Below, piece after piece: positions 9,601 to 51,203 of a DNA stretch of 51,203 nt. The stretch is from a virus. Its lineage: Duplodnaviria > Caudoviricetes. A program made the position numbers and the translations under genes. The notes under the pieces were generated by a model, which was not told where the DNA came from, searched no databases, and worked only from the letters and a program-made list of their open reading frames with translations. The stretch spans positions 1-51,203 of the IMG/VR virus record IMGVR_UViG_3300021079_000011; one strand, given 5' to 3'. Within the stretch, counting starts at the first letter, position 1. The number at the start of each line of letters is the position of its first letter.

Positions 9601-10674
9601 ATGCAATCTGCACAACCACAAACCCAAGAAGAAGAGGAACAACAGCAGGAAATGGAGTATCTGCTTGGGTTGAACGACCCTAGAATTCCTGACCAGCAAG
9701 GATTTGTTCCGCAGCCAGCCCCGGCGTGGACATCAACAGTCCCGGGAATGGCTGATGAACAGTCTCTATTTGATGCCAGAGCGAAGTCTCTTCCTCAGGG
9801 ATATGCTGTCAACCCGCCACAAGCACCGGTTGTCAACCCGCCACAAGCACCGTTTGTAAATTATCAATCCACATGGACTCCCACACCTGAAGGTGGGCTT
9901 GAAGGGCGCGGAAACTATTCTGAATATCTGAAACAGTTTGAAAATGCTGGCCAAGATGTTTCTCCTGCCAGATGGCTAAGTGCCATAAGAGACGTTGGTT
10001 TACAAATGCACAATGACGAGAAGCAGAAACAGGCAGAGATTGACCGTGAACAGGTTTTTGAAAACCCGAAGCTGGCCGCATCCGTGCTTGAAGCTGAAGC
10101 CAGAGCCAATGGTGTTCAACAGGCAGCTATTCAGCGCGGTAACGCATCTGTTCAGGCGGCACAAGTGAGGGCTGCTTCTGCTTATAGACCCACAAAATCT
10201 GAGGTTAGGGTGATGCCAGACGGTTCAATGGGTGTGTTTGAGCATCTGCCAGACGGCTCAACAAAACTGAACATTGTTGCAAGCTCGCAAGGCAAGGATT
10301 TCAAAAAATTAAATGAAGACCTTAGAAAATCCGAGACGGCCTTAATCAAGGCGAAAGCCATGTTAACGCCGACCACGATTGGCGCAGCAAAGGAAGCGGC
10401 TCTTAGTCTAATATCGGGCGCACAGGGCGTTGTTAACTACTATAAAGATGCGATTGCAAAAGCAGTCCCAACGCTACCAATGGGCGGCTCTTCAACGAAT
10501 ATCTTCAGCCCGACAACAAACAGTGTTTCGGCTGTTGTAAAACCAACTTCTTCATGGACTCCCGAGCGTGTATCTGCTACAAGTAAGAAGTTGGCAGAAA
10601 TCCAGCAGTCCAATCCCGACAAATATCAAGCAGCATTGGATTACGCGATAAAAATGGGTTTCCCGACAAAATAA
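9601..10674 (+). CDS. putative ejection/internal virion protein
   Basis: 357 aa, Q/A-rich helical; 22-bp duplication at 9807-9828/9831-9852; abuts the giant gene. Confidence 0.5.
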   Translation: MQSAQPQTQEEEEQQQEMEYLLGLNDPRIPDQQGFVPQPAPAWTSTVPGMADEQSLFDARAKSLPQGYAVNPPQAPVVNPPQAPFVNYQSTWTPTPEGGLEGRGNYSEYLKQFENAGQDVSPARWLSAIRDVGLQMHNDEKQKQAEIDREQVFENPKLAASVLEAEARANGVQQAAIQRGNASVQAAQVRAASAYRPTKSEVRVMPDGSMGVFEHLPDGSTKLNIVASSQGKDFKKLNEDLRKSETALIKAKAMLTPTTIGAAKEAALSLISGAQGVVNYYKDAIAKAVPTLPMGGSSTNIFSPTTNSVSAVVKPTSSWTPERVSATSKKLAEIQQSNPDKYQAALDYAIKMGFPTK

Positions 10675-13600
10675 ATGCCATCACAGCTATTCAAGCCTGA
10701 CGATTCTCTTGATTTCGATTCTGTCTTAGAAAGCTCAAAGGCAAAGTTTGATGATGGTGGAGCATTAAGCTTTGATGCCGTCCCCGATGTTCCCGATGTT
10801 AAGCCAAGATTTTCTGATGATGGCGCATTGGACTTCGGCACACTGGAAACAAAGCCTGAGCCCGAGCCTAAGCCGATAGCTGCAACTCCGCAGCGCACAA
10901 ACTATCTCAGCTTATCGCCTGAATCGTTCCCGATAAATACGGATTCAACGATTGATAAGACTGATTCAACTCAGACTGTAAAACCCCCAGCAGCAAAAGA
11001 GGTTAATCCGTTGCCATTGTCGAGCATTCCTTGGATTGATTCAAATGGCTATCCTGACGAGAAGCTAATCGCTAAAAAAGCACAAGCCGAGACTGCTGCC
11101 CAGCAAAAGAAGCAGGACGATTTTGATTCTTTAGCTCACTCGTCTTATTGGAAGGGTGATGCAGCCAAGCAACTTCTTGAAAAAGCAGATTCCGCCAAGG
11201 AAACATTGGACAAATCTCCGACTCAAGAAAATTCAGACGCTTACAACGCGCTCATTGACCCGCTAAATGCGGCGATACAAGAACACAAGTCGAGCCAGCA
11301 AGAACTTCAGGCTGCTTATTTCAAAACAACGGGAGAAACGCCAGTCCCGCCAAGACCCGCTGAAAACAATTCTTATCGTGTTGATGGTGGCAAAATCCAT
11401 TTTACACCCGGCCAGTTTGCTGCAGGTCTGAATCAGGCTGTGAGCGATGGCGCGATTGACCCGAAGTTTGCAATGGACAATCGGGAGAAATTTCAAAAAG
11501 CGGACAAGATTCAGTCGAAGATTGATGGAAATGGCGACCCAAATTCTCAATACGAATATGACGGCAAGAACATCAGGTTTTATCCCGGTGAAGAAGCTGA
11601 CGGATTGCGCGAAGCATTGAAGGATGGTGTTGTCACGCCTGAATATGCCGCCAAAAACGAAAAGAAATTCGGAGAGGCACAAGCCAAATACAAAGAGTTG
11701 GTAGCTGCCGCAGGAAGCGAACAGGCGGCAAAAGCTTTACTTCATGGCGGGGCTAAAGGAACGGCTTTCATGGCCGCCGCTACTCCGGCATTTAAGGTTG
11801 GCGTGATTGGGACGGAAATGATTCCCGGTGTCGGGGAAATTCCCGGAGCAGCACTTGTTGGCGGAACAATCACTTCACTTCTCGCTGGCAGCGCGGCGGC
11901 TTATGCGACGAGCAAGCTGATGGACAAAGCCGCAGAGTATTCAGATTTTGTAAAAAAGTTCACAGCATCGGCTGAACTTCATCCTGTCGTGGATGCTGTG
12001 GGCGAACTGGCCGCTTTCGGGACAGGCGCACCAAAGGCATTGAGCAATCTCAAAAAGGTTTACGACATTGCTGGTGGCGGACGGGCTGGCGCAAAGGTTG
12101 TTGCACAAGAACTTGGCAAGGGTGCTATTGGGGGCGCAGCATTTGAAACCATTGTAAGGCCAGCTTTTGATGCTGGCAGATATGCGGTTGCCGACATGCT
12201 GGACATACCGCATGACAAGTTTCAATCTCCAACGCTTCAATCTGTTGCAACGATGGTCGGGCTCGGGATGTTGCTTCATGGCAAAAGCATTGAGTTCAAA
12301 AATTATTCCGACAGCCAGATTGCAGAAATTCTGCTAAAAGCAAAACTTCGGCGCGATGCTGGAATACCGCTGGACGAAAAAAACCTGACAGCAGAACAAA
12401 AGGCACAGTTCGCAATGGCGACAGGTCTGGGTGAAGGCGCGACAATTCCAGAAATTGAAGCGCACTTGGCAAAATACAGACTACTTGTGCCGCTGACAGA
12501 AAATGAAATTTCCGTCCACGACAAGTTGCAATCAATGGCCAATTCGATGTCGCAATCTGGCAATTTTGAGAACGACACGATAAAGAGCATCACGGCGAAA
12601 CAGGCATTGTTGCCAAGGATGATTGGCCAAAAGCCAAAACCTGTCACATCGGCAGACATTGAGCTTGAACCACCGTCCGAGCCGCGCCCGATGCTTGGCA
12701 GTCCAGAGCCCCCGCCTGAGCAGCCGCAAGCCCCGGCAGTATTCCATTCGATTCAGCCCCCGATGATACCCGGCCAGCAGCCGATTGAGCTTTGGAATTT
12801 GACCGAGGACATTCCCGGCCATCCGAAAGGCTCAACCGTGTCTCGTTCAACACTGGAAAAGGCCGGGTATATTGTGCCGTCTGCACCCGCCGCGACACCA
12901 AGCGACGACGAGCAGCCCGACGCGACAGGGGCGAAGGGGAGGCAGGTGGGTAAAGGATTTCAGCCGATAGTAGTTGGCAAAAAGGTGTTGTCGATAACAA
13001 CTCGCCCAGACACGGCGACATGGCAGGTAACATCATTCGCAGATGAATACCGAGAGCAACCATCAGGGCATGAGGGATTCAAAACGCTGGGCGAGGCGTT
13101 GGAATTTGTTGACTACAAGGGTAAGGAAAACAGAAGCGTCACCGACCTTGGATGGCAAAGCCCAGATGCGATTTTTGCGGCGTTGGAGCAGAATCCGGGC
13201 GCGAACGACCCGAATCCCAAGAACTTCATTTATGCGTCACCACGCCGTCCGCTTTCAGGACTGCGTGTTCCTGATGCGGTTCAGTCTCTTTCGTTCAAGA
13301 ATAAGGAAGGAGGGTTGGCTGGAATTGTTGAGGTGTCGCGCCCTCTGACGTTGGATGAAATGGCGGCATTTGAATTAGTTCCGGTCAACACATCGGCATC
13401 AAACACCTACTGGAAATCTGTGGCAGATGCGGTGCATCCGGGGCATGAAAAGATTCAAGCTGGCAAAGACGTTGCCGCCGAGACAGGGGCGAAGACAGGA
13501 AAACCATTCACGGCTAAAGCTTATCGTGGAATCAGCCCAAAGACACCAAACGACAAAGGCATTTATTCGGAAGGAGAACACTGGACGACCAGCAAAGATT

Positions 13601-16600
13601 ACGCGGACACATACGGGGACAAGCGCGGCGGAAAGACTCATGAATCGGAAATAACACTACAAAATCCGTTCGTGGCAACACCATCGGAAATGACTCGGTT
13701 GCATCACGGCCTTTCATCGCGTCAAGTGCGCGAGAAACTTCAAGCTGCTGGACATGATGGAGTCATCATATTGCATCCTGACGACGTTGCAGAATCGAAG
13801 GCTGCTGGTGTTCCTGACAGGCTTTTGCCGCCAGCACTAGGTCAAGAAATAATAAAATTCAACAAGCCCACCCTGCCCCCCGCCGCCGCGACAGGGGCGA
13901 AGGGGAAGCAGCCTAGTGCCACTGAATACGAGCGAATTGAGCGCGAGATTTCGATTGCTTTGAAGAATCCATTGTTCCGAGAGCAATCCAAAGCTGGCAC
14001 GGATTTCCGGGACGCTTTTCGAGACTTGGAAACAGAAGCGGAGTTTCACAAGCCTGCCGCGATTGAAAAAGCTCAGGCCGAAATTGACGCTGAGAAGGCC
14101 AAGAAAGCCGCCAAGTCCGGCAGTCCAGACATTGCTTTTATTGAGCGAAGTATTGCAAATCTGGAATACAGAATAAGACAAGACAAAATGCGAGGAATGA
14201 AGCGACCAGAGGATGTCCAAAGGCTTGCCGAACTTCGCACACAACTTAAATCAGCCAGCGCACCAGCCCCCGCGCAGACAGGGGCGAAGGGGGATGAACA
14301 ACACTTTGACAATCTTTTACGGGACACGTTTGGCGTAATCAACAGATTGCCAGCGGACAACATTGTTCGTAAGAGTGCAGAAATCGGGACTCGGGTTGCA
14401 ATGGGCGCAAAGACTGATGAAGAAAAGATTCTGGCAACAAAAGAACTGGCAAAATACGCCCAAGATGCAGCCAGCGAGTTGAGAAAAATCAGCCCGAAAG
14501 ATTCTGAATATGCCGACAGGCTGGAAAAGTCTCTGGACGACTACATAAAATCACAGCCCAAGACTGCCGAGCCAAAGCCAGCAGAATCACAATTCAAGGC
14601 TGGCGACATTGTTTTACATGACGGGGTTCAAAAGAAAGTTGTTCGTGTTTCGCCCGATGGCAAATTTGTCGTGCTTGGAAAACGAGCAGTCCCGGTTGCG
14701 GAAGTTAAACCATTAGAGCAACCCCCCGCCGCCACCGAAACCATTGAATCGCTCAAAGAGGAAATTGCGAAGATGGAGAATCGGCTTGAAACCATTTACA
14801 TACCCAAAGGCAACAAGGGCGACATCACAAACTACCGCTCGCAAATCGAAGGTAAGCGCAGGAAGCTCGCTGAACTTGAAAAGGTTGCCGAGCCAAAGCC
14901 ATTTAGCCCCGACGAAGACTTGCTAATGCACTCGCCCCATACGGGTGAAGATTCAATCGTGAATTTCCGGGGCTACATGCCAGATGGAAAGGCGATGGTC
15001 TGGACTGGCAAGATGCAAATGGCCATACCCGCAGAATGGCTACGCAGAAAAGGCGAGGCCAAGCCTGTCACGGAAAAGCCCGTTGAGCAGACAGAGAAGC
15101 CGCTTCCGTCTATTGCAATCCAAAAGTCCATAACCCAGATTTTGAAATCTGTTGCAATCATTGAGGGCAAGATTAACAAAAAGGCTTACGAAAGCGCATA
15201 CGCATCAATCCGGCTTCATGCAAACAAGCTGGGGATTGAGATTGAGCCGCTTGGGACATATTTCAACGCAGACCAATACAAGCGCGTTGCCAGCCATGTT
15301 CAAATTGAGATTGGCAAGAAATTTGGCAGCTTCCCAACAGCCGAGCATAGGGCTAAACGTGATGCTGTTCTTGCGGCTGATGCTGCAAGGAAAGCGGCCA
15401 AGAAACCCAACCGTTCGCCATTCAAAGTCAAGCCGCGCTCTGATGGTGTTCCCGACATCCTCGACGCAATTCAAGAGCTTGGCGGCATCAAGCCCAAGTC
15501 TGGCTCAACTGGTGGCGAGTATGACGGTTCTGGCGTGATGAAGGGGACGGCAAGAATGTTGTGGAACAGGCTTGGTCGTGCGCCAGATGTTCTGCTTTCA
15601 AACCTGAAATCAACAGGTGAATGGTCACGGCTCGAAACTGTGGATGATTTATGGTCTGAGATTGACCAAGCCAACAAAGCCCGGGACGCGCTCAAGTTTG
15701 GCGGTGGTGGAGATGAGGCACAGGCCAGAAGATTCTGGGAAGCCATTGACAAGCCCGAGAACGAAAAAGGTTTTGAGAAAATTCACGGTAGCCAACTTAA
15801 CGTCGGAAGCAAATTCAGGCTTAAAGGTGACGGCATAAGCCATGAAGAGCTTGAAGTCACACACATTGACCCGGACACAGGCGAAATAACCATCAAGGAC
15901 GGGACAACTTTTGGCACACAAGAAATTCCTGAATCAATCGAAATTTACATCAAGAAAGGCACACTCGAAACACCCGAAGACACCGGGTTTGATACGGGCG
16001 AGGAGCAGCCCGAGCCCAAAAAAGATGAAGAATTTGCTTCTCATTACGAGTTAAGACACTGGACTACGCCAGAAAGTGCCGCAAGTTTGTTAAGGGGTGA
16101 GCCTTTCAATTTCTCCCGCGAACCAATTCATAGTCAGGTAGATTTAAGCGGAAACTTTATCAAGGGGAAGCGCATGGGCGGGAACAGAATCCATCTTTCT
16201 CTGGACGATGGAACATGGGGTTTTCGACGAGACGCGAGCGGCAAGGTTATTGGAAATCTTGTGCCAGTAACTTATGCGGTTGATTATGCCGCTAAAGATT
16301 TACTCATTGACTCGCCAAAGTCGCTGCGTGAAGCGGAGCGACTGGCTGGCGAGAATGCCACCAAACCAGACGGAACTGGCAACGCAGCATTCTGGGATGC
16401 GCTACAAAAGAAGGGCATTAAACTTGTCCGAGTCGAGAATACTTCCGACTATCCCAATGTGAGATTCTTTGCCCAAGCAACTAGCGACACGGTGGTTGTG
16501 CTGGACAATTCCGCTGTGAAAGTAATTTCAAAAGCCAAAAAAACAGCCGCCCAGCCCAAGTCTGGCGAGAAAATCTTCACTGACACGGAAGCTGACGAGG

Positions 16601-19600
16601 CTGAGAAATGGCTTAGGGAAAATCTTGGGTTAAACGAGGATGAAGAAGGCGACGGATGGGATGCGTCTGAAGACCCCGGCCACCAAGAGGGCAGCAAAGG
16701 TTTAGACCCGAAAATTCTTGCCCGAGTCGTCACAATGGCTGGTCGAATCATTGAGTCTGGCAATGTGAAGTTTTCGGATTATGCGGCTCAGATGCTAAAG
16801 AAAGGGTTCAAGGGCGACTTGGCCAAATACATCCCTGCCGCATACCATGAAGTAAGAGATTTTTCCGAGGCCAGCGCATTGCGACATCAGATGTCAACCC
16901 GCGAAGAGGTTGACAGGTTTGATTACAATGCTGAAACAGGCCAGTTCGATGAAAGCCAGCCCGACCTTGGCGGAATAATAGGCTCAGACGAGCCGGGAGC
17001 AAAGCGACCACCGCTAAGAGAGGTTGACCCGAGCTTGATTCCTACTCCAAACATTTATGTCAAGAAAGGCCAATACACAGGCAAAGGAGGCCATTCGATT
17101 GACGAGCAACAACGGTTCGCAATCAACGTCATGCTCACCGCAAAGGCAAATGGCGAAAAGGCTGGCGTTTTGGCCGATGGAACTGGTGTTGGCAAGACTG
17201 GCATTGAACTGGTTCTGGCTGTTCAACTGGCTGAAATGACGGGCAAGCCTGTTGCGATTGTCACAGAAAACAAGGCTGTGATTGAAAATGCGTTTGTGAT
17301 GAACGCAAAGAAGTTCGGCATCGAAATTGATTTCGATAAGGTCAGATTTTTTACCTATACAGACTTGTCGAGCAACAACCTGCCAGACATTGAATGGGGC
17401 GCAGTCATATTTGATGAATCTCAAAACATCAAAAACATCATGTCTTCGCGTGGTGTCACCGCAGAAAACATCAAGTCCGAGTTCAATGTTTACGGGACGG
17501 CGACACCGATGGACAATGTTTTTCATGCGCCATATTTCTTGGGCAAAATTCTCGGGGTAGATGTTTTCACGATGGCGAGAAGGCTTGGCTACGAGCTTGT
17601 TCCCATAGATTTGCCCAACGGAAAATCATCATTCATCGCAAAATGGTTGAAGAGCAAAGACGGGGCGATTCCAATTTCTGAGTCCATCAAAAGGCTGAAA
17701 GATTACAGGTCGCAAGCCGTGAAGCGCGGGACTTATATCCGGCGCGAATATCCGTTCTTTGGCTCGGTCAATTTCAAAAATGCTCCGAGCTACAACGAGA
17801 AACAGCTTCACGAACAGGACGAGATAAACAATTACTGGGACGCTCTGGCGGCAGCAGAGCCCAAGAAGCGCATGGTCTATAATGCCCAGCGCATGAACGA
17901 GCTTGCCAGATGGACTGAGGCTCAAAAGGTTCAGGGCGCAATCGGTGAGATTGTTGCAGATTACGAAGCTGGAAAGCATGTGGTTGTTTTTGCTGAATAT
18001 GTAAATGACGGCGTTATCAAGGGGCTTGAAAAACTTGGTGTTCCATACGAAGTCCCCGGAACGCTTAAATATATCGCAGCAGAATTGAAAAAGCGCGGCA
18101 TCCCGTTTGCAACGGTGTTTGGTCGCGGGAAAGATAAGGGCAAAGAAGCGGCTGAATTTCAGCGGAACAAAAAAATCAGGGTCTTGCTCGCAACACCCAA
18201 GTCTGGCGGGGCTGGGCTAGACATGGACGATACGCATGGTGATTTCCCGAGAATCGTTCACATGTTGACCATGAATTATTCTGCGTCAATCTTCGACCAG
18301 ATTCTAGGTCGCGTTTCCCGCCGCAACACAGCAAGCCCGGCCAAGATTCTAATTTGGCGAGCCGAAAATTCACAGTCAGACCGTCGCAAGGTTGTCATTC
18401 TTGACCGTAAGCTTAACATCCTGAGAAAGATTCAGACCGGGGAAGACTTGGACACAACGGCTTTTGAAGAAAATTCTCAAGGCGACACATCAGCCGATGA
18501 TGAAAGCGGCACGGCTGAATCTTCGACAAAGAAGGGCGAGGATGGGGTTAAAATACTTGATGATGTCATTGACGACGAGTTTTCTTCCCCGGACATAACG
18601 GACACGGTTGACGACGAGTGGAATGACGAGCAACCACAGTCTGAGTTCGACATCTTTTCAGCCAACGACAGGGAGCTAAACGATTTCTTGGACAAACGGT
18701 TTGGGACAGAAGACAGGCGGCAACGGGGCGTTTCCGGGGATGCTGCTCGCCGGGGCTCTGGCGTTTATCAATTCCCGACCTACGAAGCTTTTGCGAAATG
18801 GATGGACGAAAGGTATGTCGAGCGGGACTTGGAAGGCATGAAGCTGGCTTTTGCCGAGGCCGAGCGCGATTACAAGGTTAAATACATCAAGGCCAACAGA
18901 GCCCCTGAGCATAAGAAGGATTGGGTAAACCATCTTGCAACAGGCTCGGTGCTTCCGGCTGGCGACCCGCCAATAACCCGCACGACACCGAGGCCGCTGC
19001 CCGGTGGCGGCACAGCCCCAGTCCCGGGAACGCCGCCAACCAGCACATCAACACCGCCAACGCCGCCCGGCGCACCGCCCAGACCGTCCAGACCGCCAAC
19101 GCACCATCGCAAGTTTAACATCACGGCTTTGGTTCAATTATTCAAGCAGTTCGCCAACAGGCATCCAACAATCAACGCCAAATTAGCCAAGACAACGCTT
19201 GGACGGCATCTGTCACCGCTCGGGCTGATTGAGCTTCAAAAGAATCTGCTCTGGGACATGGACTTGGCCGAGCGCGTTCTTGGCCATGAGATAGGACATT
19301 TCATTGACCTGATTGTTGAGGCATCCGGCAAGGGCAAAGAGATTGGGAACAGGCTCAGGCCGATGTTCGACTTTACTGGTCAGGCGATGCACAAGGCGGA
19401 ACTGAAAAAAGACATCATCAATTTGAGCAAGGCTTGGCGCGGAAACTTTTCTGCATCTGACAAATACAGGAATTCACCCAAGGAATTGATGGCAGATTTT
19501 CTGTCGGCAATGTTTAACGACCCGGAAATGGTGAATCAAACATTTCCAAACCTGTATGATGCTTGGCAGGAATTCAAGGACTCAAAGCCGTCATTCAAAT

Positions 19601-41398: not shown

Positions 41399-41474
41399 TT
41401 GAACAGTTTTTCTCCCTGCTGACTGGGGAGGGGTTTGGGGTGGGGTTTTTCTTGAGCTTGGTTTTTCCTTTTAC

Positions 41475-43376: not shown

Positions 43377-43486
43377 ACTCAGCCACCGCCGACCTAAAAC
43401 CGTCAACCGCGATAGCGGAACTGGATGTGCAGCCCTTCCCGCCAGTGCTCGATGCGTGCTGCGGTGGCCGCAGATTCTGGTTCAAA
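43364..43486 (-). mobile_element. degenerate attC-like site
   Basis: Minus strand AAC cagaa TCT(G)CGGCCACCGC ... GCGGTGGCTGAGT tcatac GTTAGCA; overlaps the methyltransferase 5' end. Confidence 0.4.
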
Positions 43487-43967: not shown

Positions 43968-44005
43968 GACGCAATCCCGGCATTCGGTGCAGCGTATGGT
44001 TGGAC
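43916..44005 (-). mobile_element. integron-type attC site (90 bp)
   Basis: Minus strand GTCCAAC catac GCT(G)CACCGA(A)TGCCGGG ... CCCGGCATCGGTGAGC ttttt GTTAGGC: RYYYAAC/GTTRRRY ends and two extrahelical bases. Confidence 0.8.
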
Positions 44006-44026
44006 GGCGAACAACGATAATCGAAT

Positions 44027-44299
44027 ATGAAAAAAGACTACGAAGTAAACGGTGATACAATCCGCGACCCGCACGGTGACGTGATGTGTGGAACGGATGA
44101 GTTTGTAGCGGAGATGCGTATGCTCCGAGAAACCCTCTACAACCTGTTCTGGAGAACGTCCCTGCTGCGGGCTGAAATGGCTCACCGATACGGAACGTCT
44201 CTGACGCTAATGGTGGAGTTCAGCAAGCACACGCAAGCCATGCGGGAAGCTGAATCAATCCTGAACGACAAACCGTTCCCAGCCCCGGAGGTCAAATGA
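44027..44299 (+). CDS. cassette-borne hypothetical protein
   Basis: Lies between two attC sites. Confidence 0.6.
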   Translation: MKKDYEVNGDTIRDPHGDVMCGTDEFVAEMRMLRETLYNLFWRTSLLRAEMAHRYGTSLTLMVEFSKHTQAMREAESILNDKPFPAPEVK

Positions 44300-44526
44300 C
44301 AGCATCAACAATCAAGCGCGGCGACATCCTCGAAACGCGGTCGGTGTCCCTGACAACCTGCGGCGCGGTGCGTGACAAGGGAATCATCGTGCCGGGAACT
44401 CGCGTCAAAGTCGTGCGTGCCGAAAAGCCCGCCTTCTACAAATGCGAAGTCCAGCCAGTCGAACGCGAAAACGGAGCGGTGTTCGTATGGCTGTGGGCGT
44501 CCGAACTGAAGCCGTCCAACAAATAG
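44296..44526 (+). CDS. cassette-borne SH3/KOW-like small protein
   Basis: IKRGDIL...PGTRVKVV...WLWASEL; stop codon lies inside the attC. Confidence 0.6.
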   Translation: MTASTIKRGDILETRSVSLTTCGAVRDKGIIVPGTRVKVVRAEKPAFYKCEVQPVERENGAVFVWLWASELKPSNK

Positions 44527-44565
44527 TTCACCGACGCGCAGCGTTCGGTGCAACGGCAGTTAGGC
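44514..44565 (-). mobile_element. integron-type attC site (52 bp, very short)
   Basis: Minus strand GCCTAAC tgcc GTT(G)CACCGA(A)CGC tgc GCGTCGGTGAAC tattt GTTGGAC. Confidence 0.75.
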
Positions 44566-44877
44566 GGGATTCTCTTCCTGTGGCTGGTTCAAAATACAGT
44601 CCGGGTTGTTACAGGTGAACTTGGGGCTGTTCGGATAAGCGTCCGAAACCATTTTTTTACCGCAATAATCGCACTCGTCCATGAACCTGACAGCAACCCG
44701 ACTGTCGCCGTGCAAATCGTAGCTGACAAAGAATTTCCTGATTGCGTCCCTCAACTCTTTCCTTGTGGCGATTCCATCAGTCAAGTCTGCGTCAAAATGA
44801 ATGACCGACTCGCTCGGTCTTATTCCAACTTCGGACTCGCCCGGGCTGGTGATGTAAACAGTGGTATTCATTTGCAA
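44560..44877 (-). CDS. Zn-ribbon hypothetical protein
   Basis: CDYCG...CNNPDC; its TAA is part of the attC GCCTAAC box. Confidence 0.65.
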   Translation of the reverse strand: MQMNTTVYITSPGESEVGIRPSESVIHFDADLTDGIATRKELRDAIRKFFVSYDLHGDSRVAVRFMDECDYCGKKMVSDAYPNSPKFTCNNPDCILNQPQEENPA

Positions 44878-45035
44878 AATGATTCAAACTTTTCCAAGAT
44901 TTGGGGGAAGGCGAGCTTCAATGTTTCAAGGTTTTCAGAGTCAGCAACCTGAGCTGCATTTGCAATCGCAACTTCAAAGCTGCCACCAAATCGTTTCATC
45001 ACGGTGATAATTTCGTCGTCAGTTGGTCTTTTCAT
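44868..45035 (-). CDS. small conserved phage protein
   Basis: MKRFGGSF..AIA.A...AD.EN...LK.AFP motif; start probably MKRPTDD. Confidence 0.6.
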   Translation of the reverse strand: MKRPTDDEIITVMKRFGGSFEVAIANAAQVADSENLETLKLAFPQILEKFESFCK

Positions 45036-45036
45036 A

Positions 45037-45306
45037 TCAATCACAGTCCCGGTCATTGTCCATGTTCGCCCCGGCAACAAGCAGCAACTCCTCAGCTTTC
45101 TCTAGCTCGTCTTCGGTCAGTTCAATATCTTCACCCACCACCCTAATATCGTCAATCTCGTCTGGCTCGGCAGGATAGCCCGGGTCGCCATTGCTCAGAT
45201 ACCAGACCGCATCATGGCCGGGATGGAACTCGGCTTGAACGACGATTTCTATTTCTTCATCGTCCCGGATGATGGTCATGTCGGCTTGGACAGTCCTAGT
45301 CTTCAT
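45037..45306 (-). CDS. acidic hypothetical protein
   Basis: GDPGYPAEPDEI; D/E-rich. Confidence 0.6.
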   Translation of the reverse strand: MKTRTVQADMTIIRDDEEIEIVVQAEFHPGHDAVWYLSNGDPGYPAEPDEIDDIRVVGEDIELTEDELEKAEELLLVAGANMDNDRDCD

Positions 45307-45475
45307 TGGATTTTGTGAGTTGAACAATAATGTCGTGTGCAGTCTTTTGTGTTCGCTGGTCTTTAACCCAAACTCGCCCTCTTGAATCCAGCACAGCCCA
45401 AAGATAGCCCCGGCCTGTCGGGTTCGGTGTTGAACTGAACCTGAATCCTTCGGGCAGTTTTAGTTCTGGTTTCAT
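45296..45475 (-). CDS. hypothetical protein
   Basis: MKPELKLPEG start adjoining the upstream stop. Confidence 0.5.
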   Translation of the reverse strand: MKPELKLPEGFRFSSTPNPTGRGYLWAVLDSRGRVWVKDQRTQKTAHDIIVQLTKSNED

Positions 45476-45867
45476 TAAAACCCCTCGCAATCTTGGCGAG
45501 CCTCTTCAAAAGTGCAATATCCTCTGCTTAGTTGTTTGTCCGCTCTGCGTATCTTCGCGGCCATCCTGCGGGTTTGAATGGCTGCTTTCTTGGTTCTGGC
45601 CTTGGCCAACTGCTCGGCCTGTGTCTGACTGCGAATGATGAACCTGAACAAATCTACGGCGAGCATGGACACCACGCGCCGGGTTCGCTCAGGTCTGAAC
45701 TCAATCAAATCACCATCCTTGAGCGTCACGACAAGCCGCTTGGCTTTATCAGAGCCGAATTGTCCGCCAAGCACAGTCCGGGTAACTCGACTGACCGGGG
45801 CTGGTTTCTGATTCACGATTTGACCGCTCGCGTCTCGGACTGGTCTTGTGTGTGAAAAGGTTTTCAT
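45475..45867 (-). CDS. basic hypothetical protein
   Basis: True start probably MKTFSHT (45867); the track's 5' extension overlaps other genes. Confidence 0.6.
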   Translation of the reverse strand: MKTFSHTRPVRDASGQIVNQKPAPVSRVTRTVLGGQFGSDKAKRLVVTLKDGDLIEFRPERTRRVVSMLAVDLFRFIIRSQTQAEQLAKARTKKAAIQTRRMAAKIRRADKQLSRGYCTFEEARQDCEGF

Positions 45868-45986
45868 GGTTTGTGAACGGCGAGCCACGCCAAAGTTAAT
45901 CCCGCACAGAACAGCACGGCGCACAGGACATAACACCATTTGCTGCCGTAAAACTTTTCCGCCCGGTCTTGAATGGTTGGCTTCAT
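45864..45986 (-). CDS. small membrane protein (40 aa, not in ORF track)
   Basis: MKPTIQDRAEKFYGSKWCYVLCAVLFCAGLTLAWLAVHKP; ATGA overlaps on both sides. Confidence 0.6.
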   Translation of the reverse strand: MKPTIQDRAEKFYGSKWCYVLCAVLFCAGLTLAWLAVHKP

Positions 45987-46453
45987 ATCCACCCTTTCGA
46001 TTTTTCAAGTGCTGCTCTGGCTGCGGCCATAAAATTGCAATTAACCAGTCCCCGCTCCGTTGCCGACTGGTCAAGCTGGGTTTGTGCGACATGAACAAGG
46101 TCGGCAAGGGCTTTATACAGTCCCGGTTCACGCTCTTTCGCGCATCCTTGATTCTCATAAGCAGACAGGGCGGAGCGGAGCGCAATTTCATCGGCGTATA
46201 AGTTCGCATCAGCTTCACCCCAAACGGTCAATGCTTTGGCAGCTTCCGCCACCGCAACCAGCAAGGCGTGGGAGTTGACCGCTGCAAAACGAATCTCGCT
46301 GCTAGTATGCTCTTGGCAGGTTTGCCATTCGTCGCCGTTGTCGTTGCCACTTACGAACAATGCGGGAGCATGGCAACAAGCCATTCCGCAAATGCCAGAG
46401 CTAGTGAGCCGCAGAAACTTCCTTGTCGCCGTCGCTTGTGTTTGTTTTTTCAT
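45983..46453 (-). CDS. hypothetical protein, paralog of 47329-47628
   Basis: MKKQTQATAT..., HALLVA..AA..LT, L.SAL.AYE. Confidence 0.65.
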   Translation of the reverse strand: MKKQTQATATRKFLRLTSSGICGMACCHAPALFVSGNDNGDEWQTCQEHTSSEIRFAAVNSHALLVAVAEAAKALTVWGEADANLYADEIALRSALSAYENQGCAKEREPGLYKALADLVHVAQTQLDQSATERGLVNCNFMAAARAALEKSKGWI

Positions 46454-46481
46454 TGATTGATTTAGGTTGAGGGGTTAGGGG

Positions 46482-46781
46482 TTAGGCCAATTCGACTGCC
46501 GTAGCCGTCCAGTGATGTTCTTTGCCGCTTGAATCTTCATCGCAGAACGTCGCGCCAATGAAGTAATTGCGAGCCTCTTTGAGCGTGACACCGATTGCCA
46601 TGCTGGTTACATAGCTTGAGCCGTCAGAGCGTGTCACCTTGAACGCAGGAAGCTCTTGGACGGGCTTGAATCCGCAGTTGAGGCAAAGACCACCAAAGGT
46701 CATGTGATGCGCTGTGCAAGTGATGGCCTTCTCGCTGCCGAACTTGGCGAGCGCAAAAGCATGATGTGTGATTGATTTCAT
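46482..46781 (-). CDS. hypothetical protein
   Basis: CLNCG motif; A-rich upstream tract. Confidence 0.6.
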   Translation of the reverse strand: MKSITHHAFALAKFGSEKAITCTAHHMTFGGLCLNCGFKPVQELPAFKVTRSDGSSYVTSMAIGVTLKEARNYFIGATFCDEDSSGKEHHWTATAVELA

Positions 46782-46823
46782 GTTTGTCGTTTCGTTTGTT
46801 TATGTTTAGCAGGGTGTATGCCG

Positions 46824-47357
46824 TTATCCGTAGCGTTTGCCTGATTCTGTGAACGTGTAGCCATTGGCGATAATCACTTCGTCAACCTGCTCGTAGGCAA
46901 GCTGATATTCCATTTCGTTTTGGAGCATGATTAAGTAATCTTCCAAGATGCTTTTGAGAAATTCATCGCAGAGCATACCGCGCTTGTCCTGCCACAGTTC
47001 CCATTCGACGTTTGTTTCGTCGTCGCCGTCAACGGCTTCAATTTTAGCGTTCAATTTCTTCAATTCACCAAGCCATGCCGTCGCCGTCTTGAACGTCTCG
47101 CAAGTGTCGCCGTGTTCGCTCAAAATCAAGTTGGCGCATTGCTCTGCCCCGCCGATACAGTTAAACTCTCCCGTTGCGTGGCGATTACGGTCTAAATCGA
47201 ATGACTTGATTTTCAGTCCGATGTTTTCAGCATCGTCGTAAATGCTTTCCCACCATTCATGTTGCAATGCGCCTTCGCGATACCATTCCCGCGCCTTGTC
47301 TTTGGCTTTGTCTGTCAGTTCGTTAAACTCAAATACTGTCGTTTCGATTGTTTTCAT
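46824..47357 (-). CDS. acidic conserved phage early protein
   Basis: MKTIETTVFEFNEL.DKAKDKAREWY...EYQ...I.ANGYTFTESG; start at 47357. Confidence 0.7.
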   Translation of the reverse strand: MKTIETTVFEFNELTDKAKDKAREWYREGALQHEWWESIYDDAENIGLKIKSFDLDRNRHATGEFNCIGGAEQCANLILSEHGDTCETFKTATAWLGELKKLNAKIEAVDGDDETNVEWELWQDKRGMLCDEFLKSILEDYLIMLQNEMEYQLAYEQVDEVIIANGYTFTESGKRYG

Positions 47358-47628
47358 AAGTGTTTTGATTGGTTTGTATCGTGAAACCCTTCTCATAAGC
47401 AGCTAGGGCGGATTTAAGGTTGTGCCAACAGGATTCACGGCTGATAGCGTCTGATTTAGCGGTCAGGAGTTCCGCCGCATCCTTAATGGCAACGAGCAAG
47501 GCGTGGTCGCTGCTGCTGATGGTAACCGTTGGCGGAACGCAGGGCTTTGGATTGTCCATGATATTTTGAATCATTGCCCGATATTCAGGGTCATTTCCTT
47601 TCATCGCCGTTGCTTGTGTTTGATTTTT
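47329..47628 (-). CDS. hypothetical protein, paralog of 45983-46453
   Basis: MKNQTQATAM..., HALLVA..AA..LT, LKSALAAYE. Confidence 0.6.
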   Translation of the reverse strand, partial: KNQTQATAMKGNDPEYRAMIQNIMDNPKPCVPPTVTISSSDHALLVAIKDAAELLTAKSDAISRESCWHNLKSALAAYEKGFTIQTNQNTYENNRNDSI

Positions 47629-47645
47629 CATTTGGTTTATTTGTT

Positions 47646-47870
47646 TCACAGTCCGGGTATTTGCATTGTTTGATTGTCATTGTCGTGATGATAAAAACCG
47701 CCGAAGCCATCGGAACAGTCCCCGGCATGGCCAGCTTCAAGGGCGCACGGCGGCATGAATCCGAACAGCTTCTTGCCACAGGTCGGCTTGCTGCTGGTCG
47801 CGGTCTGGCCAGCAAGGTTGAAAATGTCTTCCGCTCCGGGCAGTTCAAATTGTGGGATGTGCTTTTTCAT
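47646..47870 (-). CDS. small Cys/His protein
   Basis: C...CALEAGHAGDC; QFELPG. Confidence 0.55.
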   Translation of the reverse strand: MKKHIPQFELPGAEDIFNLAGQTATSSKPTCGKKLFGFMPPCALEAGHAGDCSDGFGGFYHHDNDNQTMQIPGL

Positions 47871-48283
47871 ACCTTGTTTACCTGCACGTTGACCGTGCCT
47901 ACTTTGTAATCAGAAACCCGCGAACGAGTGTCCGCAAAAATTCGGTATTTGCGCGGGGATGTTTTGACGAATGTTTTCCCAATCGAAAACTCGACAGGGT
48001 CTGCGAAGGCGAATTTTTCGCCCTCTTTAATGTCTTTGAATTTCATGTTCACAGTCTTGGTCATTCCGGCCTCAGCCCGTTTCTCGTTTTCAATCTCAAC
48101 GTAAAGCGCGGCGACTTGCGGCGACATTGCCCCGTCCTGCTTTTCGCCCCAAGCTTGCGCGGCTTCTTTTGTGTCGAACATTCCACACGCCACAAGCCAG
48201 CCGCCGTCCCGTATGTCGCAACGGAACTTTGACGGGTGCGGGTTTCCCATTGTTTCCGGGTTGTAGATTTGGTGGGTTATCAT
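47867..48283 (-). CDS. hypothetical protein
   Basis: C-terminal KFKDIKEGEKF module; coupled stops and starts. Confidence 0.6.
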   Translation of the reverse strand: MITHQIYNPETMGNPHPSKFRCDIRDGGWLVACGMFDTKEAAQAWGEKQDGAMSPQVAALYVEIENEKRAEAGMTKTVNMKFKDIKEGEKFAFADPVEFSIGKTFVKTSPRKYRIFADTRSRVSDYKVGTVNVQVNKV

Positions 48284-48498
48284 AGCTTTACAGTCCCAAT
48301 GACTTCGCGGGTTGTTCCGTCAATTATTTTGCCGCAAAAGTCGCAGCGATAATGCCCGACCCATCCGCACTTAGCGTCAGGCTCAACAAGCTGTCCGGTC
48401 TTGGCGCACGGATAAAAACCGTGCGTGTCCGGGGTGTTCTTACAAATGCAAACCCAGCAATCCGGGCTTTGCGGTTCACATGATATTGTTTCGGTCAT
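48280..48498 (-). CDS. Cys-rich Zn-binding protein
   Basis: CICKNTP..HGFYPC...YRCDFCGKII; ATG 48498 just after a minus-strand promoter. Confidence 0.65.
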   Translation of the reverse strand: MTETISCEPQSPDCWVCICKNTPDTHGFYPCAKTGQLVEPDAKCGWVGHYRCDFCGKIIDGTTREVIGTVKL

Positions 48499-48505
48499 AG
48501 CTAAA

Positions 48506-48571
48506 CAATTACACCACGCCGAAACTTTGTCAAATCTTTTTCTTGACAATTATTTCACCCCGCTGTAACTG
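48506..48571. promoter_or_regulatory. back-to-back divergent sigma70 promoters
   Basis: TTGTCAA-N-TTGACAA inverted pair (48527-48549); minus -10 TAATTG, plus -10 TAACTG. Confidence 0.7.
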
Positions 48572-48632
48572 TATCTCCACCGGGGCACAGTCCCGGTAAA
48601 ACAAACAACAAACCAAAAAAGGAAAAACAAAC

Positions 48633-48815
48633 ATGAAAGTCGAAATCGTAAACGGAAGGCTGGTCATAACAATTGACGCTCACACGTCGAACCCCCCGGC
48701 CAGCAATAGCGGCAAAACGCTCTTGGTGGCTTCCACTCACGGCAACAAGGCCACGACCGCAATGGTTGACGGCAAGCCGCTCGTCGTCTCGGTCAACGCC
48801 TACATTCCCCGCTGA
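48633..48815 (+). CDS. small conserved phage protein
   Basis: SNSGKTLLVAST.GN motif; AGGA upstream. Confidence 0.75.
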   Translation: MKVEIVNGRLVITIDAHTSNPPASNSGKTLLVASTHGNKATTAMVDGKPLVVSVNAYIPR

Positions 48816-48819
48816 CATT

Positions 48820-49209
48820 ATGAACAAACAAGCACTTCAATCAATGGATGGCTTCACTGGGACGATGCAATATCATCGGGCGAGCCTCTTTATTCTCTGC
48901 ACGGACGGCGTTTTGCATCTGTGTGAAAACGCTTCCGCATATTGGCTGCTTGACGCAATCGGCAGCTATCAACCGACGAAAAAAATCCGCTCGACTCCGG
49001 GGCTTTTGGAGTTTCAAGCATGGAAGCTTCGACCCGGCAAAGAGTTGAATTCCGCCACGCTCATTTGCGAAGACGGGAACAACAATGAAGTTCTGCGCCA
49101 AGAAATCGAATATTCCGACTTCCCGTTTGACGTTATCCCGGAAGCCGTTATCTGGGTTGAACCAACTGGCGAGGGCAAACCGCTGGCCTTGTTGCCGTCT
49201 GAACATTAA
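48820..49209 (+). CDS. DUF6876-like protein
   Basis: FTGT..Y, TDGV, AYWLLDAI, FQAWKL, EDGN, YSDFP, LLPSEH; start 48820. Confidence 0.7.
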   Translation: MNKQALQSMDGFTGTMQYHRASLFILCTDGVLHLCENASAYWLLDAIGSYQPTKKIRSTPGLLEFQAWKLRPGKELNSATLICEDGNNNEVLRQEIEYSDFPFDVIPEAVIWVEPTGEGKPLALLPSEH

Positions 49210-49227
49210 CCAAGAAAGACCAAAAAC

Positions 49228-49692
49228 ATGGGACTCGACATGTATCTAAGAGCATCGAAATACATCGGAGGCTGGGAACATTCCGGCGAAGACAAGGAAC
49301 GGTTCAAGGCTGTGCTGGCTGCCGCTGGCTTGCCTGAATCCGTCGCAACGCAGGACTCGCCCAGTCTTGCAGTCCGGGTGACGGTTTGCTATTGGCGGAA
49401 GGCCAACGCAATCCACAAGTGGCTCGTTGACACCGTGCAAGAAGGAAAAGACGAGTGCCAAGAAAGCTGCGTATCACGCGAGCAACTTGGCGAACTTGTT
49501 GCCCTTTGTGACTCTGCCATTGCCACGAAAAACGCCGCCTTGCTGCCCCCAGAGTCCGGGTTTTTCTTCGGCTCGACGGATGTGGACGAAGGTTACTGGG
49601 AAGACTTGAGGCACACCGCCGAATCAGTCCGGGCTTTGCTCGACAATCCCGACCTGAAAGACTGCGCGTTTTATTACCAAGCCAGTTGGTGA
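49228..49692 (+). CDS. conserved phage protein (MGLDMYL / YWRKANAIH family)
   Basis: MGLDMYL, YWRKANAIHKW, LP..SGFFFGS, FYYQASW. Confidence 0.8.
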   Translation: MGLDMYLRASKYIGGWEHSGEDKERFKAVLAAAGLPESVATQDSPSLAVRVTVCYWRKANAIHKWLVDTVQEGKDECQESCVSREQLGELVALCDSAIATKNAALLPPESGFFFGSTDVDEGYWEDLRHTAESVRALLDNPDLKDCAFYYQASW

Positions 49693-49763
49693 ACCAACCG
49701 CAAGCGCGAACACAGTCCCGGTCGGGCGCAAGCTTGGCCGGGAAATTTATTTTCAAAATCTTG

Positions 49764-49792
49764 TTGACAGGAATTACATTCAAGTGTAACAC
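49764..49792 (+). promoter_or_regulatory. sigma70-type early promoter
   Basis: AT-rich UP element, TTGACA, 17 bp, TAACAC; polar motif at the predicted +1. Confidence 0.65.
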
Positions 49793-49838
49793 AAAGACAG
49801 TCCCGGTAAATCCGGGCGTCAACAAAAGGAAAACAAAC

Positions 49839-50060
49839 ATGAAAAAAACAACTAGACCGCAACCCGGAGAGGCTTATCAGCCAAGCCCGAAACAACACGC
49901 CCTGAGCTACTTGGTTAGCGTCGGCCTTGCCACCGCTCAAAGCTCAACCCACTACCACGCTGGCCTTGCTTGTCCTTGTGGGACTTGCTTTTGCTGTGAG
50001 GTTTATTCACTGGTTTGGGACGTCAAGGCCAACACAAGTTTGGAGGCGGAAACGATATGA
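49839..50060 (+). CDS. small Cys-rich protein
   Basis: CPCGTCFCC; start after AAAAGGAAAACAAAC. Confidence 0.6.
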   Translation: MKKTTRPQPGEAYQPSPKQHALSYLVSVGLATAQSSTHYHAGLACPCGTCFCCEVYSLVWDVKANTSLEAETI

Positions 50061-50305
50061 ACGCGACCAAGCTACAACTTGAAGAGGTGCTTGCCGCCGC
50101 TGAATCCGGTGAGGGTATAGGGTTCTGCGTCCGTTGCGGTTCTGAGCATGCCGAGTGTGAACCCGATGCCCGGAACTATGCTTGCCAAGATTGTGGCCTT
50201 GCCACAGTCTTTGGCGCGGAGGAAATTCTAATTCACGCCGGGATGGACACCGGGACGGTCAATCCAAACTGGTTTCAGGAAGCCCCAGCGGAGGGCGAAC
50301 CATGA
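50057..50305 (+). CDS. Zn-ribbon protein
   Basis: GFCVRCG...EPDARNY.C..CG...VFGAEE. Confidence 0.75.
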   Translation: MNATKLQLEEVLAAAESGEGIGFCVRCGSEHAECEPDARNYACQDCGLATVFGAEEILIHAGMDTGTVNPNWFQEAPAEGEP

Positions 50306-50502
50306 GATGCGAAGACTTCCCTTGTTGCGGTCACGAATCCGGCTGCTGCCCCGACTACGACGAAGCCGGAAAACAACTCAACATGCGCTGCACCTGTGGC
50401 GCAAAGCTACCACTAACAAGCCGATACTCAATCTGCTCTTCATGCCTGAATGACGAACGCGACAGCATGCGCGAAGACGACCTGAATGATTGCCGGGACT
50501 GA
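50302..50502 (+). CDS. Cys-rich protein
   Basis: MRCEDFPCCGH..GCCP, CTCG, CSSC. Confidence 0.7.
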   Translation: MRCEDFPCCGHESGCCPDYDEAGKQLNMRCTCGAKLPLTSRYSICSSCLNDERDSMREDDLNDCRD

Positions 50503-50506
50503 TACC

Positions 50507-50590
50507 ATGAACACAATCCAACTCTGGCTGCCAACTGCCTTAATGCTCGCCGCAATCGTCCTAGCTTGCGCCCTACTGCGTCGAACCTAA
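50507..50590 (+). CDS. 27-aa membrane peptide (not in ORF track)
   Basis: MNTIQLWLPTALMLAAIVLACALLRRT between the upstream gene and a terminator. Confidence 0.5.
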   Translation: MNTIQLWLPTALMLAAIVLACALLRRT

Positions 50591-50607
50591 TCAACCAACA
50601 TCAACAC

Positions 50608-50646
50608 AGCCCCGGCCACGCGCAAGCCTGACCGGGGCTTTTCCTT
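50608..50646 (+). terminator. Rho-independent terminator
   Basis: AGCCCCGG/CCGGGGCT stem followed by TTTCCTT. Confidence 0.65.
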
Positions 50647-50679
50647 GACACAGGGACTGTCGCCACTCATGTTTCCGCT

Positions 50680-51045
50680 ATGCCAACCCTATTCACTAAA
50701 GAAACAGCCGTTGATGCCGCTCGAAAATCTGTCATTGCTCGAAAGGCCAACCAAATAGCGGCCATCGAACGGGCAAGACAAGCTGCCGAAGATAGGCTGG
50801 TTCTGCTCGAAAAGCTGGCTTTGGCCAACGGTGGCGCGGACGAAAACATCAGGCGCGGCGTAATCTTCGCACAGCTTGACCAATGTGACAACTTCATAAA
50901 CAAAGCCAAGACTGCCGAAGACTTCACGAAGCTTACAGCCGCGAAGGAACGGCTCTGGCACTTGGTTCATCCCAAGACAGGCAGCTTCAAACCCAAGCCG
51001 ACCAAGACTGCGCCAGTCCAAGCACAACCCGAACCCGAAGCATAG
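50680..51045 (+). CDS. putative terminase small subunit
   Basis: FTKETA..AARK N-terminus, helical body, own promoter, next to the C-tract non-coding region. Confidence 0.4.
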   Translation: MPTLFTKETAVDAARKSVIARKANQIAAIERARQAAEDRLVLLEKLALANGGADENIRRGVIFAQLDQCDNFINKAKTAEDFTKLTAAKERLWHLVHPKTGSFKPKPTKTAPVQAQPEPEA

Positions 51046-51203
51046 CCAAGCCCCGGCTTGAACCCTGCATCAAGCCTTGACCTTGACCAACGCTCTGACC
51101 TTAGGCCAAGACCTGCACGGCTTGGCTTGTGTCTCAACTGTGGACAGTCCGGGGCTGGCTTGAATCTAAATCAGGCCAGACCGTCCCCACACCCCCCACC
51201 CCC

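Follow-up and report, generated by a model that had tools for sequence, protein, structure and literature searches.

Strand-specific sites in described phages

Phage T5 has been known since the 1960s to carry site-specific nicks in just one strand of its packaged DNA, and the same was later found in tf and in phiKMV-like phages, which carry 3-4 major nick sites. The nick site is given as R/GCGCRGG for T5 and BF23 and as CGACxxxxxCCTA/CTCCGG for phiKMV-like phages (PMC3517423). The same source describes 14 nicks at TACT/RTGMC in tf, all of them in the top strand and 11 in one genome half, the gene sets of this phage being transcribed convergently; the purpose of the nicks is described there as unexplained even in T5. 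In the GenBank record of tf, 12 of the sites fall within the early/middle block of plus-strand genes and 2 within the minus-strand late genes, several of them exactly at gene junctions. A literature search found no paper naming the nick enzymes of T5, phiKMV-like phages or tf.

The window analyzed here (51,203 nucleotides, the whole of an IMG/VR virus contig) derives from an uncultured lake phage and holds about two dozen copies of an 11-base word, on one strand. The one-strand nick consensus sites of tf, T5 and phiKMV, which the first-pass annotation of this DNA did not consider, are the best-matching known phenomenon. By analogy with them, the likeliest reading of ACAGTCCSGGT, to which we give a probability of about 0.35, is that it may be a strand-specific nick site for a phage-encoded nickase.

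The resemblance is closest to tf and the LUZ24-like phages. Both there and here a consensus of 9-11 bases, degenerate at one or two of them, occurs in about 14-23 copies on one strand, including copies inside opposite-strand genes, with clustering in the early half, many sites at gene junctions and flanks that carry no information. The sequences and phage lineages are nevertheless unrelated, and the nicks are experimental in tf, whereas here they would be predicted from the likeness. The nicks of T5 and phiKMV are likewise site-specific and limited to one strand of a linear packaged genome; T5 has fewer major sites (5) and its heptamer also occurs on the un-nicked strand, and in phiKMV all genes run in one direction, making strand and transcription inseparable there, unlike in this record.

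An 11-base word confined to one strand

Counting on both strands of the whole 51,203-nt record, and repeating the count, we found 16 copies of ACAGTCCSGG on the plus strand and none on the minus strand, just where the first-pass annotation had placed them. The next base is T in 14 of the 16, again as first reported and confirmed by a position check, with G at 9736 and 51144; the copies of ACAGTCCSGGT thus share 11 informative positions, and their flanks lack conservation. Six near matches noted earlier (14686, 19018, 47715, 49369, 49551 and 49624) are likewise all present on the plus strand.

The family is larger than originally claimed, since the wider pattern ACAGTCYNGG has 23 plus-strand copies and none on the minus strand (shuffle mean 0.47). 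Its second-class copies, all on the plus strand, are ACAGTCTTGG at 7592-7601, 23283-23292, 25905-25914, 37750-37759 and 48051-48060 (the last inside minus-strand ORF 47867-48283) and ACAGTCTCGG at 8378-8387 (55 nt upstream of ORF 8433-9170) and 20270-20279 (inside the 4017-aa ORF). ACAGTCCWAG occurs three times on the plus strand, as ACAGTCCTAG at 39056-39065 (a single transition from the forbidden CCTGG) and 45290-45299 (between minus-strand ORFs on the gene map) and as ACAGTCCAAG at 40064-40073, and once on the minus strand, where ACAGTCCAAG at 3586-3595 is the sole member of the wider family on that strand. One-mismatch variants of the 11-mer, unlike the exact copies, lie on both strands (8 plus, including the two exact 10-mers that end in G, and 4 minus). 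In tf, the reported one-substitution variants all lie on the same strand, so that the 4 of 12 found here on the other strand speak against the nick site reading.

CCWGG is missing from the entire genome (0 copies) and CCSGG is abundant (184 copies). Because of this genome-wide lack of CCWGG, the "S" position of the word is probably an N at which W is forbidden. The same genome displays extreme palindrome avoidance, an observation that may interest students of phage-host defence more generally.

Neither base composition nor coding accounts for the word. In 100 dinucleotide shuffles ACAGTCCSGG averaged 0.10 copies and none reached the observed 16. The enrichment that the first-pass annotation had asserted also survives Markov models of orders 1-5, which absorb the abundant CCSGG: these predict at most 1.4 copies of each of the two 10-mer variants (9 and 7 observed) and at most 0.17 on the minus strand (0 observed). 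Its argument that codon usage is not the cause is borne out by shuffling synonymous codons within genes (300 rounds), which left 0.81 copies on average and never more than 4, against 9 observed coding sites (mean 0.04 on the minus strand). Applied to tf, the same k-mer pipeline returns TACTGTGAC with n = 11 (0.16 expected, none on the other strand); applied to this record it returns 9-mers with n = 8-11 (0.17-0.38 expected, 0-1 on the other strand). That the likeness of the word to the tf site is a statistical one counts against the nick site reading.

Position relative to genes and transcription

Our home-made gene map and a reversal of AT skew define a minus-strand gene block at 44560-48498 (with PHROG matches for minus-strand ORFs 46824-47396 and 46482-46781), and convergent gene blocks are separated by bidirectional terminator-like hairpins. 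Seven of the 23 ACAGTCYNGG sites lie in this block and oppose the local gene direction, upholding the earlier view that their orientation is independent of transcription. The claim that five exact copies lie inside minus-strand genes held for two or three: 44596-44606 (in minus-strand ORF 44560-44877, near its 3' end), 46117-46127 (in ORF 45983-46360) and, at a gene junction, 45043-45053 (at the end of ORF 45037-45279 and 7 nt upstream of an in-frame ATG of the next minus-strand ORF). The other two lie at or upstream of minus-strand start codons, 45773-45783 overlapping the GTG start (45774) of ORF 45475-45774 and 47648-47658 preceding the ATG at 47631 by 16 nt.

Within plus-strand genes we find the exact 10-mer ACAGTCCCGG, followed by G, at 9736-9746 (inside ORF 9601-10674, frame 0) and exact 11-mers at 24234-24244 (in ORF 23518-24288, with ORF 24285-26597 starting 51 nt downstream), 29151-29161 (inside ORF 28560-30161), 30700-30710 (in ORF 30158-30775, with a predicted start at 30748, 48 nt downstream), 34006-34016 (inside ORF 33871-34146) and 42095-42105 (inside ORF 41979-42503). 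The non-coding copy at 41371-41381 is bracketed by a 12-base inverted repeat (AAAAAGTAAAAC / GTTTTACTTTTT). Beyond the minus-strand block, two copies sit just downstream of sigma-70-like promoters, as had been recognized: 48587-48597 begins 15 nt after the -10-like hexamer of TTGACA-17-TAACTG (48543-48571) and 46 nt before the ATG at 48633, and 49797-49807 begins 4 nt after that of TTGACA-17-TAACAC (49764-49792) and 42 nt before the ATG at 49839. In the non-coding copy at 49712-49722, CCCGG forms the 5' arm of a terminator-like hairpin (49716-49743). Together with the near copies GCAGTCCGGGT (49369), AGAGTCCGGGT (49551) and TCAGTCCGGGC (49624), which span 49369-49634 inside ORF 49228-49692, the copies at 49712 and 49797 make five copies or near copies in 430 bases (49369-49807). 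The last exact 10-mer, non-coding and followed by G, lies at 51144-51154.

Seven of the 16 exact copies are non-coding, against 8% non-coding sequence in the genome (P 1.4e-4), and four of the 16 precede plus-strand start codons by 42-51 nt (P 9e-5 for a window picked after inspection of the data). This non-coding excess, the promoter-adjacent copies and the 42-51 nt spacing suit a regulatory site equally well. One such site would be an asymmetric operator of a monomeric phage regulator that blocks transcription in one direction; the dispersed C1 operators of P1 offer a precedent, as do the stoperators of cluster A mycobacteriophages (L5 gp71 type). The latter are asymmetric 13-mers in more than 20 dispersed copies per genome, located at promoters and between genes, with orientation-dependent function (PMC9283540). 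In this phage the sites would act as a polar roadblock that silences rightward (plus-strand) transcription alone, wherever it occurs, including antisense transcription across the minus-strand block. The positions past two TTGACA-17-TAAC promoters, the cluster of five, and a third promoter-like site (38994), whose -10-like TAATTT is followed after 34 nt by the variant at 39056, all count in favor of an operator.

We nevertheless consider an operator rather unlikely. Known stoperators track the direction of transcription (PMC9283540), whereas 7 of 23 sites here oppose it, a contrast that the first-pass annotation had drawn correctly; and if orientation were irrelevant to the regulator, 23 of 23 sites on one strand would be very improbable. 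Many sites lie deep within long genes (20270, 25905 and 29151), and bidirectional terminator-like hairpins already part the convergent blocks. Cluster A phages, which are temperate, possess an identified repressor, whereas here no repressor or integrase family was found among the ORFs scanned (the small ORFs in part), the only trace of a repressor being weak HTH hints below the Pfam cut-offs, and the 13 ORFs of at least 300 aa gave no integrase or recombinase family match.

The upstream spacing of the four copies might also suggest an element of promoter type that serves middle or late transcription in the rightward direction, such as a -10-like box that a phage-modified RNA polymerase would recognize in the manner of T4 late promoters; the copies in the minus-strand block would then give antisense RNAs. 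In other phages, most of the dispersed, strand-specific repeats of early regions are promoter and leader elements, a precedent that counts for a promoter and against a nick site. Several observations make a promoter very improbable, however: 7 of 23 copies would drive antisense transcription of the minus-strand block, several stand mid-gene in long genes, two follow sigma-70-like promoters rather than replacing them, the -35 position and everything else beyond the 11 bases is unconserved, and profile searches of the ORFs found no RNA polymerase or sigma family.

Record ends, other genomes and a candidate nickase

The copies cluster in the early region, 11 of the 16 exact ones falling in the last 10 kb (binomial P 2.6e-5). 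That much of the reported end clustering stands; the "genome end" beside it is less certain. A C-rich terminal repeat of only 25 bases at 51179-51203, which begins 24 nt after the last copy and is identical to bases 1-25, may mark a physical end or an assembly break, and contigs from two other runs end at the same place, at 51182-51184.

End clustering invites comparison with Chi (RecBCD/AddAB) and KOPS (FtsK), which, like this word, are polar, over-represented and independent of transcription. The first-pass annotation had proposed such a signal for a translocating enzyme. On this proposal the word would be densest beside a DNA end that needs protection or enters first, and would be read either by host RecBCD/AddAB entering at one DNA end or at the tail of a rolling circle, or by an ejected 4017-aa SNF2-domain protein of the phage itself, which the word would orient or load. 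The single orientation throughout the genome, whatever the direction of transcription, fits this proposal, and the degenerate second-class copies look like partially active Chi-like words. RecBCD reads Chi with the motif strand ending 3' at the entered end, which is the orientation found here if the right end is real. Chi and KOPS, however, are host-encoded words of 5-8 bases, abundant and skewed in the host chromosome, whereas this word specifies 11 bases and is confined to one phage lineage. The proposal gained no support, and we regard an 11-base Chi-like or loading signal as improbable; were it one, it would be by far the longest and most specific of its kind, and carried by a phage rather than a chromosome.

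A scan of a genome collection bears on the same proposal. We scanned one genome per species, 185,579 species in all, for two motif copies 100-130 bases apart, a query sensitive only to densities of roughly one copy per few kb. It returned 27 loci, 19 of them longer tandem repeat units and three tight local arrays; five genomes counted genome-wide held between 3 and 41 copies, spread over both strands, in 1.3-7.9 Mb (no more than ~14 per Mb, compared with 312 per Mb in the phage). At this sensitivity the scan yielded local tandem arrays or background counts, and no genome with dense, dispersed copies.

Among viruses, the motif appears private to one phage lineage on the sequences compared. It is not enriched in the loci of 160 TerL relatives or in five complete relatives, and relatives at TerL identity of 75% or less are without it, which also weighs against a Chi-like signal, though their hosts may differ. 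For a nick consensus of the LUZ24 kind, close relatives would be expected to share the site and its positions; the only close relative, ~95% identical (runs X3/X5), carries a motif-like CAGTCCCGGT within an otherwise replaced stretch. Such lineage specificity would fit a site evolving in step with an enzyme that the phage itself encodes. The same 11-mer also occurs on one unrelated viral contig, in both orientations and as an iteron- or operator-like cluster, which favors an operator to that extent and implies that proteins reading the 11-mer probably exist.

Returning to the nick site reading, we suggest that ACAGTCC(N, seen as S)GGT and its weaker ACAGTCTNGG forms would be the recognition site of a phage-encoded enzyme specific for sequence and strand, a candidate nickase that would leave localized single-strand interruptions in the plus strand of packaged DNA, as in tf/LUZ24, T5 and phiKMV; the cutting, the identity of the cutting enzyme and the purpose of the nicks are the parts that we infer. 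The single orientation would follow from one strand alone being cut, and the strand exclusivity (16/0 and 23/0, including the sites in the minus-strand block) argues for it. Selection at the DNA level would keep sites wherever coding permits, and would thereby leave gene junctions and non-coding DNA with more than their share. Profile comparison (PHROG, Pfam) identified no nickase among the phage ORFs; the only two nuclease-like ORFs are an exonuclease-like one and a VRR-NUC-like 116-aa protein (38556-38906) that matches phrog_93 at 1e-12 and falls below the Pfam cut-off.

Any explanation must accommodate the orientation rule, by which the word keeps to one strand whichever way transcription runs. 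As a polar operator, or as a Chi-like signal, the word would be out of the ordinary. If it is a nick site, the statistically clean likeness to tf in an uncultured lake phage of another lineage would suggest that one-strand nicking is more widespread, and also that a scan for strand-exclusive words can find such sites from sequence alone.

A strand-exclusive dispersed 11-mer

The 10-mer ACAGTCCSGG occurs 16 times in the window and lies on the + strand every time (dinucleotide shuffles give a mean of 0.10, none of 100 reaches 16, and a repeat count agrees), with T as the next base in 14 of the 16 copies, as the first-pass annotation had read them. Markov models of order 5 or lower, whose expectations already take in the 184 occurrences of CCSGG, predict at most 1.4 copies per variant on the + strand and at most 0.17 on the − strand; the excess that the annotation had staked on unequal strands and on enrichment over such a model is thus retained (16 + against 0 −). 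The motif is a genuine dispersed 11-mer, strongly non-random and confined to one strand, with no information content outside its 11 positions.

Relaxing the word preserves this polarity: ACAGTCYNGG is found 23 times on the + strand and never on the other (shuffle mean 0.47), the additional members being seven second-class copies of the form ACAGTCT(T/C)GG. ACAGTCCWAG occurs three times on the + strand and once on the − strand (shuffle mean 0.07), one-mismatch variants of the 11-mer number eight and four, respectively, and all six near matches named in the first pass are present. CCWGG is absent genome-wide, where composition alone would give about 100, so the central S of the motif probably stands for N with W excluded. 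CTTGG, CCTAG, and CCAAG each lie one transition from a CCWGG form, and copies carrying them may be remnants of W-type sites.

Several mundane origins can be set aside. Codon usage or a shared peptide fails to explain the copies: reading frames differ among those within plus-strand genes, further copies sit inside minus-strand genes, and the codon-preserving shuffle that had been proposed as a check (300 rounds, sites classed as coding) averages 0.81 copies and peaks at 4, where 9 are observed. A longer repeat or mobile element is out because the 11 positions hold all the information, and a hairpin or terminator element because nearby complementary CCSGG pairing is found for only 2–3 of the 16 copies. 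Avoidance of one orientation of a Type III restriction site, exemplified by EcoP15I sites in T7, would account for the strand bias but not for a 160-fold excess. Known DNA uptake sequences are present in both orientations, and we found no motif-dense genome. Iterons are likewise rejected, since the only cluster comprises five copies (49369–49807) and the others are dispersed.

Avoidance of palindromes is extreme across the window. GATC is missing (about 198 expected from composition), as is GGWCC alongside CCWGG, while GTAC occurs once and GGSCC three times; 36 of the 64 hexamer palindromes are absent (190 in total versus about 787 expected), and several asymmetric hexamers are absent from both strands. 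A related complete genome, G014, leans the same way, with 28 of the 64 missing, and CCWGG is likewise lacking in several relatives of the large terminase (TerL). This avoidance points to a host rich in restriction systems.

Gene layout and the placement of copies

The window is a complete IMG/VR record of the direct-terminal-repeat class (51,203 bases), although the repeat is only 25 bases long (C-rich, 51179–51203 and 1–25), and the metagenomes containing its sequence are lake-water runs. Our gene map, built from codon usage and hence approximate, places the terminase genes on the minus strand (716–2709); plus-strand genes then extend over 2810–44526, a block at 44560–48498 is minus-strand (backed by a reversed AT skew and by PHROG matches for two of its ORFs), and another plus-strand block runs from 48633 to 51045. 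TerL itself (922–2709, minus strand) matches phrog_2 and has hundreds of metagenome relatives, on contigs mostly of 50–58 kb. Megablast of both window ends against 50,697 phage records gave zero matches, searches of the window for tRNA genes and Rfam families found none, family searches leave most ORFs without a name, and no RNA datasets containing the stretch were listed.

Other features of the genome deserve brief record. ORF 10675–22728 (4017 aa) carries an SNF2-related helicase domain near residues 2143–2300 and is presumably a giant virion or ejected protein; ORF 8433–9170 contains four 33-base tandem units (8851–8990, an 11-residue peptide repeat). Amid the structural genes lie a GroES-like co-chaperonin ORF (28252–28545), a second methyltransferase-like ORF (30158–30775), and a weakly glycosyltransferase-like ORF (30748–31692), which could be linked to DNA or virion modification. 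In another metagenome run (X2), a contig elsewhere identical to the window joins 43367 to 44518; lacking 43368–44517, and with it a DNA methyltransferase gene (43373–43921) and two small ORFs, it represents a natural deletion variant. From their base runs, a G-run stretch downstream of the 41371 motif copy (GGGGAGGGGTTTGGGGTGGGG, about 41413–41436) and the C-rich terminal repeat (CCCCACACCCCCCACCCCC, 1–30 / 51179–51203, G-rich on the opposite strand) look able to form G-quadruplexes.

The copies are distributed unevenly over this layout. Eleven of the 16 fall in the last 10 kb (P 2.6e-5), the early or regulatory stretch with its short genes, bearing out the clustering first noticed from the sequence, and 7 of the 16 are non-coding on a map that is 91.9% coding (P 1.4e-4), a count that inherits the uncertainty of the map. 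The same uncertainty attaches to start distances: four copies precede plus-strand start codons by 42–51 nt (P 9e-5, for an interval picked after viewing the data). By our own pattern reading, the motif follows the sigma-70-like promoter TTGACA-17-TAACTG at 48543 by 15 nt and TTGACA-17-TAACAC at 49764 by 4 nt, and the variant ACAGTCCTAGT comes after a third sigma-70-like promoter, at 38994; none of these three was among the promoters listed by a consensus scan. The first belongs to a divergent, back-to-back pair (48530–48572), whose leftward member, TTGACA-16-TAATTG, stops 7 nt short of the ATG of a minus-strand, 72-aa Cys-rich ORF (48280–48498), a gap that suggests a near-leaderless transcript.

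A polar operator, of the kind found as stoperators in cluster A mycobacteriophages, would suit the surplus of non-coding copies and the placement of copies after promoters. Within the minus-strand block, three copies lie 0–27 nt upstream of minus-strand start codons and yet read on the + strand; the motif thus tends to lie at gene boundaries, whichever strand the genes are on, with an orientation set by the genome and not by transcription. Known stoperators, however, follow transcription (PMC9283540), and the ORFs scanned contained no repressor or integrase family. We consider an operator a rather doubtful explanation. Elsewhere among phages, strand-specific words of the early region stem most often from promoter and leader repeats, but the antisense and mid-gene copies make it very unlikely that the motif is itself a promoter element.

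Relatives and candidate hosts

A single-protein TerL scan of viral contigs returned no result. The closest TerL relatives compared at the DNA level (75% and 68% TerL identity) are on short contigs, and motif enrichment was seen around TerL relatives at 0 of 80 viral and 0 of 80 metagenome loci. Many TerL relatives (P0009, P0015, P0020, P0022, and others) are ~900–970 aa long with intein or Hint-type Pfam matches (PF14890, PF13403, PF07591), and look like intein-interrupted terminases. The five complete relatives (G010–G014) hold no comparable dispersed one-strand word, the best signal being a terminal tandem array in G014. This array, built of 24-base repeats, occupies both ends of its record (1–80 and 55380–55519); it may serve as iterons or as a packaging site, or it may have caused the assembly break. 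A ~95% identical relative (runs X3/X5) is mosaic, departing from the window after 48502 to read TTTCAGTCCCGGTC..., which is a motif-like copy within a replaced regulatory stretch. The motif is absent from the loci around relatives of ORF 49228–49692, which has three near copies in the window.

Scanning viral contigs for motif pairs with a 60–90 base gap retrieved four unrelated contigs (three coding tandem repeats and one iteron-like cluster), and a gap of 320–350 bases retrieved none. The iteron-like cluster lies on a 25-kb viral contig of 66% GC (G001, L089/L093), where CAGTCCNGG is repeated 12 times, reading either way, over 470 bases (896–1363), including an inverted pair of the full 11-mer; this cluster is iteron- or operator-like, and tblastx found no similarity between the contig and the window. 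A further pair scan, run on 185,579 species with one genome apiece and sensitive only to densities near one copy per few kb, gave 27 loci: 19 longer repeat units, three tight arrays, and five with background genome-wide counts on both strands. It yielded no candidate host with a dense motif, although the host may be missing from the collection.

These searches bear on the proposal of the first pass that a translocating enzyme reads the motif as a Chi/KOPS-like signal. Its single orientation and clustering near one possible end agree with that proposal, but the motif is longer than a signal of this kind should be, it is private to the lineage of the window, and the species scan yielded no motif-rich genome; we retain this reading as a bold and quite improbable alternative.

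Likeness to phage nick sites

Phage tf has 14 nicks at TACT/RTGMC, on the top strand only and 11 of them in one half of a genome whose gene sets are convergently transcribed; T5 and phiKMV-like phages likewise carry their own consensus sites for nicks on one strand (PMC3517423). The available text of that source gives the function of the nicks as unknown, and the only responsible genes it names are the mapped T5 loci sciA and sciB. The GenBank entry for tf annotates 12 nick sites in the plus-strand early/middle block and two inside minus-strand late genes, several of them coinciding with gene starts or junctions.

A 9-mer pipeline run on tf recovers 11 copies where 0.16 are expected, and none on the opposite strand; the same pipeline on the window gives 8–11 against 0.17–0.38, with 0–1 on the other strand. 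The likeness, which is statistical, extends over copy number, length, degeneracy, and strand exclusivity, and equally over the disregard for transcription and the biases towards the early region and towards junctions. Beyond the readings weighed here, the remaining probability belongs to mechanisms that we have not thought of. Pending physical mapping, the most economical filing of the 11-mer, to which we assign a probability of roughly one in three, is that it may be a phage one-strand nick site.
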